Below, piece by piece: positions 26,880 to 28,070 of a DNA stretch of 64,000 nucleotides. Under the pieces are notes generated by a model. That model had not been told where the DNA came from and did no database searches. It saw nothing but the letters and a program-made list of their open reading frames with translations. A program made the position numbers and the translations under genes. The first letter of the stretch is position 1; each line of letters begins with the position of its first letter. The stretch comes from a virus. The stretch lies in the IMG/VR virus record IMGVR_UViG_3300045988_135167. One strand, 5' to 3'.

Positions 26880-27360
26880 CGCGCGTTAAATGTGTGCGCG
26901 GGAGAAAGCCAACCGGAAGCTGAGGGCAAGCCCAAACCCATCTGTTTTATCCCGCCCTCGCAAAATTGCCCATTCCCGCCATTCTTTCATGTAGGGTGTA
27001 CACCTAACAGGGCCTTCAGGTATAACTTTAAGCCTCGACCACTATCACCATTCACCCTCTCGCATATTTTCAATTTTGGTTCCATCACCCTCCCTGGAAC
27101 GCCCCTCCGGTGCTTTTCTCCGTGCCAGGGTGGATTCCCGGTTCGACGGACCCATGTTCCGTTGGCCCGCTCACGTGTACGCGCGACCCTGGCGCAAATC
27201 CCGGTTTGTCGTCCTGGCGAATCGTGAACCCGGCTTCAACGATCCTTCGCTTCAACGCTTCCCCGGTTCAAAACTTCGGCGACCCCATTTCCGGAAAAAT
27301 GCGAGTTGAGGATTTGGATATGCGCGGCGGGCGGCTGAAGGGGGAGTGACCGTGGTGGTG
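26880..27360. repeat. GC-rich noncoding stretch with degenerate direct repeats (CCTGGCG..AATC..CCCGGTT, CTTCAACG)
   Basis: No credible ORF; CCCGGTT(C/T) at about 27137, 27200, 27231, 27262; CCTGGCG at 27189 and 27213. Confidence 0.4.
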
Positions 27361-28070
27361 TCAAAAAAGTTAGGTGCGACTTTTTTAGAATCATTCCAAC
27401 ATTGAAGCGGTGAATCGGAGCCGCGCCGGGAAAACCAAACGCCCTACCGTATAGCATAACTCGCTTATACTTAACAGTCTCTTAATCCATACTTCGCATA
27501 ATATACGTAATGCCAAATCGGTTGCGTGTCCAGTGCATAACGCGTTGAAGCTTAGAACCTTGAACCCTTTTCCGTTGGCTTTTCGCTTGGGAGAATCTGC
27601 GATTCATTGGTTCAACGGTTCGGCGTAGCAAAAGAATCCATTCTGGAGCTTTACAAAATTGTAAAAAAGAGACTTTTCTTTTGCGCCAAATTGTAAATCC
27701 CTACCATTCCGATAGGGATAAACGCTGAAGCGTTGTAACGTAGTTGCGTTGAATCATTTAGCCACATACCAGAACCGACATATCAATGAATCACGATACG
27801 TTGATGCGTTGAATCGTTGAACTGTGGAAGGTCTGCAAGGAATAAAATTTTATGCTTGAATGTAAAACTTTTCTAAATCCCTATAAACCAATGACTTATA
27901 AGGATTTAGAATCACTGAATCAACAATCGGAGCATCGAAAAGGCATAAAATTTTATACAATTCGGCTAAAATCATATAAAATTTTATCCAACTGATATTC
28001 AATCACTTGGGATAGAATCATGAAAAAACCCATAACGAAGCGTTGAATCATTGAAGCGTTGAATCGTAGA
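27230..28070. repeat. iteron array, core GCGTTGAA / TTCAACGC, 9 or more copies in both orientations
   Basis: GCGTTGAATC at 27746, 27806, 28040, 28056 (last two 16 bp apart), GCGTTGAAGC 27542, GCTTCAACG 27233 and 27249, GTTCAACGG 27609, CGTTGAAC 27815. Confidence 0.55.

Follow-up and report, generated by a model that had tools for sequence, protein, structure and literature searches.

Tandem octamer arrays, shared with bacterial chromosomes, in the candidate origin and early-control region of an uncultured gut phage

The 64,000-nucleotide stretch of viral DNA analyzed here (IMG/VR record IMGVR_UViG_3300045988_135167; hereafter, the window) makes up most of the ~69 kb genome of an uncultured gut phage, and a single noncoding region of it, between positions 26663 and 28424, holds about 38 units of a tandemly repeated octamer, GAAKCGTT, arranged in nine clusters over 27230-28135 and in both orientations. 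Because the same octamer arrays, with the same geometry of paired arrays, are dispersed intergenically in unrelated bacterial genomes, we tentatively read the octamers as recognition sites for a conserved DNA-binding factor, probably one of the host lineage, which the phage would have massed around unwinding-prone DNA in its origin and early-control region; we would place this reading somewhat short of an even chance. Whatever binds the arrays, the odds that replication starts somewhere in 26.7-28.4 kb seem to us roughly one half, and the region remains the best origin candidate in the phage.

A preliminary description of this DNA had reported an iteron array, and all the repeat sequences that it cited are indeed present at their positions: GCGTTGAATC at 27746, 27806, 28040 and 28056, the last two forming a tandem pair spaced by 16 bp; GCGTTGAAGC at 27542; GCTTCAACG at 27233 and 27249; GTTCAACGG at 27611; and CGTTGAAC at 27815. 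Their enrichment, in both orientations, is also real. The window contains 11 copies of GCGTTGAA against 2.2 +/- 1.5 in shuffled sequences (0/100 shuffles reach 11), a 5-6 fold excess, and six of the 11 fall in 27251-28063; CGTTGAA occurs nine times in the 1762-bp gap, for which the composition of the remaining window predicts 0.69 copies (p = 5e-8). What has to be revised is the parsing of the repeat as a 10-mer recurring at 16 bp: the unit is an 8-bp tandem octamer, GAAKCGTT (in its looser form GAAnCnTT), and GCGTTGAA recurs as the junction of two octamer units. Same-strand pairs of GAANC within 27100-28100 are 8 bp apart in 11 cases, 16 bp in eight and 24 bp in five, and are almost never found at other distances, the mean number of 8-bp pairs in a Markov simulation being 0.06. 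Tandem Repeats Finder, independently, reports 28037-28073 as a repeat of period 8 with the consensus GAATCGTT.

Under a strict parse, three arrays stand out as strong, namely A (6 units), D (5) and H (5), where chance would give 0.007 such runs per kb; the remaining clusters, B, C, E, F, G and I, are looser and complete the total given above. Array A (27230-27277, minus strand) reads GAAGTTTT GAACCGGG GAAGCGTT GAAGCGAA GGATCGTT GAAGCCGG and begins 568 bp from the GTG at 26662 that opens the neighboring primase-helicase gene, close to the roughly 600 bp given in the preliminary description. It is followed by the four units of array B (27388-27419, plus strand; GAATCATT CCAACATT GAAGCGGT GAATCGGA) and by a convergent pair (27539-27621) made of array C on the plus strand (27539-27570) and array D on the minus strand (27582-27621), the well-formed units of which lie 35 nt apart (27563-27597), as in bacterial array pairs. 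Arrays E (four units, 27727-27758) and F (five units, 27795-27834) are both on the plus strand, the small array G occupies 27909-27924, array H (28037-28076, plus strand) consists of five perfect-core units, GAAGCGTT GAATCATT GAAGCGTT GAATCGTA GAATCTTG, and array I lies at 28112-28135. Each of G1, A2, A3 and C5 is retained by 15 of the 16 units that make up the strong arrays, and position 4 is G, T or C; such position-specific conservation reads as the pattern of a recognition site and not of fresh slippage copies. The arrays are restricted to this one locus of the ~69 kb genome, with none at its other intergenic regions, and they share with iteron origins the use of one short site in many copies, regularly phased and in both orientations. 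A cluster of GANTC (CcrM-type) methylation sites was considered and rejected: only GAATC is enriched, the region is devoid of GAGTC and GACTC, and GANTC is not avoided genome-wide.

Nine assemblies could be aligned across the gap, L001, L003, L004, L005, L006, L007, L010 and L011 being strains of the window phage. The flanking genes are ~100% identical between strains and the gap is a mosaic with patches of 57-82% identity, through which the octamer arrays persist, being retained where strains share no more than 71-82% of the sequence. Array H keeps its five GAANC cores in L001, L003 and L004; its first two units are replaced in L007 and L010. The same L001, L003 and L004 have cluster G mutated to AACGTTGAAG (CGTTGAAG in L001), and array A varies in copy number, with extra units inserted in L003, L007 and L010.

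Outside the phage, a metagenome scan with the probe GAAGCGTTGAATC-N3-GAAGCGTTGAA returned 15 contigs, two of which are this phage; the other 13, many of them from JGI environmental metagenomes, with GC contents of 38-67% and one of them 284 kb long, are unrelated DNA with long arrays of the GAAKCGTT octamer. Scanning bacterial genomes for GAAKCGTT x3, with one genome per species, gave at least 120 loci, and all figures on bacterial arrays here and below are counts among the matches listed. Of these loci, 54 belong to Verrucomicrobiota and ~38 to Bacteroidota (Saprospiraceae, Flavobacteriia and Bacteroidales, with Balneolaceae counted with them); several metagenome-assembled genomes have 3-5 loci each, and some of the contigs span 0.7-2.9 Mb. 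The arrays range from 3 to at least 16 units, and some are long enough to end contigs. With naive calls of open reading frames (ORFs), 116 of 153 arrays are intergenic, and what they face is the end of a gene in 88 cases and the start of one in 58. No family of flanking genes, replication genes included, recurs beside them, the largest cluster of neighbor genes having a size of four. An inverted partner is found on the 3' side of 33 arrays, at a modal spacing of ~35 nt, and on the 5' side of one. At position 4, the 824 bacterial units have T in 523 and G in 253, and this alternation of G and T is common to bacterial and phage units.

Altogether, at least 130 unrelated bacterial and metagenomic loci carry GAAKCGTT arrays, so the repeat is not private to the element as an iteron would be. 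The preliminary description had drawn an analogy to the P4 alpha system, in which the initiator binds iterons of its own, and this part of its proposal is not supported: an octamer that many bacterial chromosomes have as well, with the same G/T at position 4 and the same geometry of the pairs, in the neighborhood of no recurrent replication gene, is not what one expects of a private iteron of the P4 type or of the type found in Staphylococcus aureus pathogenicity islands (SaPI). The literature search found no paper containing (GAAKCGTT)n array sequences. Arrays of ECF-sigma promoters (AAK-N16-CGT) were rejected as an explanation of the bacterial loci, which are not preferentially upstream of co-directional genes (22/146 flanks), and seven IMG/VR matches to GCGTTGAATC-N-GCGTTGAATC turned out to be unrelated repeats.

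Within the phage, the arrays surround DNA that should melt readily. A candidate DNA-unwinding element of 65-80% AT, recognized from its stability profile and palindromes, occupies 27835-28036 and includes array G; leaving aside the intein and TnpB inserts described below, no 200 bp of the window are less stable than 27837-28037, which arrays F and H bracket, an AT-rich, meltable segment flanked by repeats being a property of iteron origins. The palindrome ATAAAATTTTAT occurs in it at 27842, 27945 and 27976 (3 copies vs 0.13 expected) and is invariant between strains. A second AT-rich stretch, the spacer between D on the minus and E on the plus strand (27622-27726), holds AAATTGTAAA repeats and a hairpin at 27699-27721 with a 7-bp stem and a 9-nt loop. 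Further away, an AT block adjoining the primase gene (26815-26870, within 26800-26902) is flanked by two copies of CCGTTAGT on one side and by GTGTGCGCGGG on the other; it matches by position a (TA)n block of related phages and may be an alternative origin core, one that lies outside the coordinates of the preliminary description.

The boundaries of the gene-free region at 26663-28424 (1762 bp) follow from ORF layout, gene calls, strain indels and circular continuity. Its DNA is noncoding, as had been claimed, because gene calling on more than 10 independent assemblies leaves it empty and every ORF is broken by strain insertions, of 76, 44 and 73 bp, none of them a multiple of 3; a hidden protein gene was rejected on the same grounds. 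The gap is flanked by the primase-helicase gene on the minus strand and the first early gene on the plus strand. Because genes run leftward from 26662, past the point where the assembly closes into a circle and into the structural block (49.5-64 kb), and rightward from 28425, it is the sole divergent switch point on the circular map, and all transcription is directed outward from it. The leftward genes are those of the primase-helicase, ThyX, DNA polymerase A, an intein-containing helicase, a DUF2800 nuclease, TnpB and the terminase; the rightward ones (28425-49457) comprise small early genes, an NAD-dependent ligase and an ORF of 3323 amino acids. Human-gut metagenomes have repeatedly yielded this genome, in contigs of 68.1-70.5 kb, and 138 indexed blocks of the assembly collection contain its DNA polymerase sequence; one ENA contig (ERZ27261453 k119_35392) is 100% identical to the window across 26663-28424. 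No close relative was found among cultured phages, plasmids or IMG/VR contigs. A DnaA-dependent origin was rejected for want of clustered DnaA boxes (TTATCCACA), the region having a single box with one mismatch and the window a total of 16 vs 11.4 expected. Structured RNA was likewise dismissed, with no Rfam match at gathering or E-value thresholds and fold z scores of -0.05 and +0.58 for 26870-27400, and no tRNA was found in the region. The proposal of a candidate origin is partly supported: the phased repeats beside a true primase-helicase, the flanked meltable DNA, the divergent switch region and the arrays of relatives speak for it, and the view of the repeats as private iterons is not supported.

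Relatives of the phage were reached through polymerase homologues of 41-47% identity, which led to syntenic gut phages of ~69 kb (L024, L026 and L027 among them). In these, too, the gene for a primase-helicase, 26-34% identical to that of the window, has 1.3-2.7 kb without genes upstream of it. The unit repeated there has 9 bp, CCACGGAAY; its arrays, direct as well as inverted, lie 30-220 bp upstream of the promoter or start of the primase gene, and other parts of the early region have additional CCACGGAAY clusters. The relatives also possess a second family of repeats (TAACAA in L024, GAGACA in L027), which is placed in opposite orientations around the (TA)n block, which is itself flanked by inverted repeats. 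Since the relatives carry other phased arrays at the same position, such arrays are a feature of the lineage with a changeable sequence. L024 (3500-4190) and L026 (3097-3661) have four tandem strong sigma70-like promoters (GTCGATTTTGCTTGACA-N17-ATAATG) directed toward the early genes; the GC-rich terminator hairpins that lie between them would imply short noncoding transcripts. The more distant L025 and L029 were discarded as comparators because they are not syntenic. A host in the Planctomycetes-Verrucomicrobia-Chlamydiae (PVC) group, with Verrucomicrobiota as the probable phylum and Akkermansia as the obvious gut candidate, is suggested by remote polymerase homologues in Verrucomicrobiota and Kiritimatiellota and by the sigma70-type promoters found in the relatives; the literature search gave no host identification.

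The gene next to the arrays was correctly described as a primase-helicase. It extends over 23735-26662 on the minus strand and encodes 949-975 amino acids depending on the start codon, the GTG at 26662 giving 975 and gene callers starting further downstream (949, or 957 from the ATG at 26608). Pfam recognizes VapE-like and BT4734-like N-terminal domains, and the protein can be divided into a BT4734-like primase N terminus, a VapE/SaPI-Rep-like helicase core and a highly diverged C-terminal portion of ~160 amino acids. The core has a match to PF05272 (E = 3.5e-28) and resembles SaPI Rep1 (PDB 7PDS) both in sequence (phmmer, E = 5e-8) and in fold (Foldseek, E = 1e-10), followed by NrS-1, PriRep5, poxvirus D5/E5 and MCM, so that the candidate initiator has the Rep/D5-type helicase core seen with iteron origins. 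P4 alpha is a multidomain primase-helicase initiator too, with type I iterons in ori and crr that are specific to it and form two clusters 4.5 kb apart. The phage resembles P4 in having such a multidomain protein and octamer-sized repeats, direct and inverted and in more than one cluster; it differs in that there is no sequence relation and in that its octamer is widespread in bacteria. The SaPI replication module (structures PDB 7PDS and 7OLA) offers a closer parallel: SaPI Reps are self-loading initiators whose C-terminal winged helix binds the iterons, which are penta- or hexanucleotides in opposite orientations around an AT-rich center, and the origins measure ~300 bp, contain 6-12 iterons and lie immediately downstream of rep (PMC9371898). 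Likenesses to the SaPI module are the homologous helicase core, the fusion of primase and helicase as in SaPI5 PriRep5, and a short pentanucleotide core in many copies, with sets of opposite orientation around AT-rich DNA; indeed, D (minus), the AT-rich 27622-27726 and E/F (plus) reproduce the SaPI layout. The arrays could then be private iterons, bound by the C-terminal domain of a primase-helicase that loads itself at the flanked AT-rich DNA in the manner of SaPI Rep or P4 alpha, and it fits this explanation that relatives with diverged primases have a different phased unit near the primase promoter or gene start and that the C-terminal 161 amino acids (23738-24220, minus strand), searched alone, have no homologue among 1.84 billion representative proteins outside their own cluster, as a fast-evolving specificity domain might. 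Yet the ~38 units in nine clusters extend over ~900 bp and not ~300, lie 0.6-1.5 kb upstream of the gene instead of directly adjoining it, and follow a strict 8-bp phasing; the AlphaFold2 model of the C-terminal domain, with a pLDDT of 30-45, is too poor to judge or show a winged-helix fold; and a full-length BLAST alignment to the L026 primase extends into the domain, which is thus diverged and not unique, leaving a supposed co-variation of domain and repeat unit too weak to retain. Identical arrays with the same pair geometry in many bacterial chromosomes, away from any replication gene, are unexpected for a private specificity, and we regard this explanation as rather unlikely.

The main competitor of a host-type recognition site is, in our view, a repeat without any role in initiation. 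Bacteria harbor repetitive extragenic palindromes (REP/BIME), and the octamer arrays might be host-lineage repeats of this kind, self-propagating or structural (terminators, insulators or topoisomerase sites), that have colonized the noncoding DNA of the phage. The bacterial loci do look the part: they are dispersed and mostly intergenic, often at gene ends, without a fixed neighbor, numerous in some genomes and organized in inverted pairs that could form hairpins, and array length is unstable, as arrays end contigs and phage strains differ in copy number. Other properties fit less well, as the arrays are tandem octamers of variable number with a ~35-nt spacer, the unit is common to several phyla, whereas known REP families are species-specific, and the strict convergent polarity (33 vs 1) is not needed for simple hairpins; the hairpin of the phage C/D pair is weak and no more stable than shuffled sequence (z = -0.86), and in the phage the arrays keep to a single region, where they outlast the divergence of strain patches. 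We would give this explanation perhaps one chance in a few. A phage-encoded transcription regulator of the ribbon-helix-helix type, acting on divergent early and replication promoters, is less probable still. Operators of this class have tandem sites, 8-bp metboxes for MetJ and heptads for pSM19035 omega, and share with the octamers the contiguous units of 7-8 bp, the direct and inverted runs of 2-10 and the position-specific conservation; the location between divergent operons, the overlap of array H with a promoter-like TTGAAT-N18-TAGAAT, the relatives' arrays just upstream of the primase promoter and a 65-amino-acid early protein (29201-29398) with a sub-threshold winged-helix match (E = 0.003) would all suit such operators. 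Against them speak an unrelated unit sequence and the absence of ribbon-helix-helix or helix-turn-helix proteins among 20 small neighbors in Pfam, PHROGs and NCBIfam (which very diverged ones could escape). By sequence inspection no -10 element stands at a consistent distance from the arrays, promoter-like sites are not enriched (3 vs 4.2 expected), and no other intergenic region of the genome has arrays. A regulator private to the phage would, moreover, leave the bacterial arrays unexplained. Least probable, and to our mind very improbable, are genome ends or packaging or injection signals, with arrays comparable to those next to the T7 terminal repeats or within the injection-stop region of T5. 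A large noncoding stretch upstream of early genes would be the place for them, circular assemblies are compatible with terminal redundancy, and many contigs break inside the region, at the equivalents of window positions 26844, 27231, ~27410, 28023 and 28211. These break points, however, differ between assemblies and coincide with repeats, the stop of four Logan contigs (k = 31) at the right arm of a 33-bp inverted repeat (~28211) being an assembly effect; the terminase genes are 15 kb away, and no terminal-repeat signature is readable from the sequence data.

The reading that we prefer is that of the octamers as host-type recognition sites. The units would be landing sites for a conserved, sequence-specific DNA-binding factor, probably of the host lineage; the phage would have concentrated them around the unwinding-prone DNA at 27837-28037; and the region would be an origin and early-control region organized by a borrowed host-type repeat instead of private initiator iterons. 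Several points weigh against this. The different unit of the relatives, CCACGGAAY, could be due equally well to different hosts or to a phage-encoded specificity that evolves fast, and degeneracy is greater in the phage units than in the bacterial arrays retrieved, which were selected for perfect units. The taxon shares rest on the matches listed and may be biased, and the array survey took in no genome of Akkermansia or other gut Verrucomicrobiota. The control with shuffled units was made in IMG/VR only, where the octamer has 10 loci vs 3 and 3 for two shuffled units, and part of the cross-phylum spread may be slippage background. The trough in cumulative GC skew, at 18-28 kb, is flat; an origin in the gap would agree with it, but the signal is weak and not decisive, and does not pin down an origin. 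Binding by a protein, the identity of that protein and a start of replication at this place are things that we infer, in contrast to the repeat structure with its phasing, conservation, persistence in strains, wider distribution and geometry, and to the helicase family and meltability, all of which are observed. A bolder version, by which (GAAKCGTT)n is an undescribed, polar repeat family that crosses phyla, has pairs of arrays converging over ~35 nt and is recognized by a conserved DNA-binding protein in Verrucomicrobiota and Bacteroidota, and from which a common human-gut phage, probably of Akkermansia or another PVC bacterium, built its origin and early-control region in order to recruit the factor, is speculative, and we consider it doubtful.

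Further elements crowd the right part of the gap. Two 28-bp palindromes (28073-28240; z = -8.4) form an inverted repeat with perfect 33-bp arms (28073-28105 and 28208-28240), which flank a 102-bp segment with array I and 31-bp tandem repeats (28125-28195). The 31-bp repeat has ~2.5 copies in the window and ~1.5 in L001, L003, L004 and L005, and each full unit opens with the mini-ORF ATGGAGCCGTGA. The inverted repeat is not an inverton: the 102-bp segment has the same orientation in 9/9 spanning assemblies and only the 4-nt centers of the palindromes flip. They do so independently between GCTT and AAGC, the window having GCTT/AAGC, L011 AAGC/AAGC, and L005 and L007 GCTT/GCTT. Three hairpin loops altogether (27699-27721, 28078-28107 and 28208-28235) are exactly reverse-complemented between strains, that at 27699-27721 changing from CCATTCCGA to TCGGAATGG in L005; these reversals look like hairpin-associated template-switch inversions and suggest that this DNA often extrudes hairpins. 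A site on the minus strand at 28272-28284, TATCAATAGGTTA, is IHF-like. A 64-nt noncoding block (27455-27518, containing CCATACTTCGCATAATAT and GTAATGCCAAAT) is conserved in L026 (2514-2577, E = 2e-12), although the DNA polymerase A of the two phages is only 45% identical. The 13-bp motif of this IHF-like site, ATCAATRRSTTAT, which fits the IHF consensus WATCAANNNNTTR, is found once or twice in each noncoding control region of the window phage (28272-28284) and its relatives (L024 2878-2890 and 4996-5008; L026 2564-2576; L027 474-486) and nowhere else in their loci examined; strains L001, L003 and L004 have no match to it.

Elsewhere in the genome, the gene of an SNF2-type helicase (16002-18512, minus strand) is interrupted by an intein with a Hint domain and a LAGLIDADG homing endonuclease, the AT-rich insert of which is the least stable DNA in the window. 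An IS605-family TnpB (Cas12f-like) element at 13560-14693 (minus strand) is polymorphic: L005 lacks it, L001 and L004 each have a copy that is different or truncated, and L006 has two copies. The rightward block ends with the 3323-amino-acid ORF (38873-48844, plus strand), which has no sequence match in Pfam, PHROG or PDB; by size and position a virion RNA polymerase of the N4-like or crAss-like kind came to mind and was dropped for lack of sequence evidence. The window closes in an array of 60-bp tandem repeats (63652-64000; 5.8 copies, 83% matches), mostly within the ORF at 63155-63943, and the source contig ends in this array. In the part of the genome outside the window, at ~15500-15900 of L030-L033, a 62-amino-acid protein has a weak Acb2/Tad1-hairpin match and may be an anti-CBASS or anti-Thoeris sponge; a tail-fiber gene near it varies from 707 to 827 amino acids between strains.

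Should the arrays prove to be passenger repeats, what was found would be no more than a noncoding control region of the ordinary kind, in which an origin is plausible. If, on the other hand, the octamers are the recognition sites of a host-type factor, they would provide a testable handle on the start of replication or on early control in an abundant, uncultured lineage of ~69 kb gut phages that has no cultured relative, and they would reveal an unrecognized system of repeat and protein in the genomes of Verrucomicrobiota and Bacteroidota. The octamer array could then mark the host lineage of such phages and serve as a probe for the factor that binds it.

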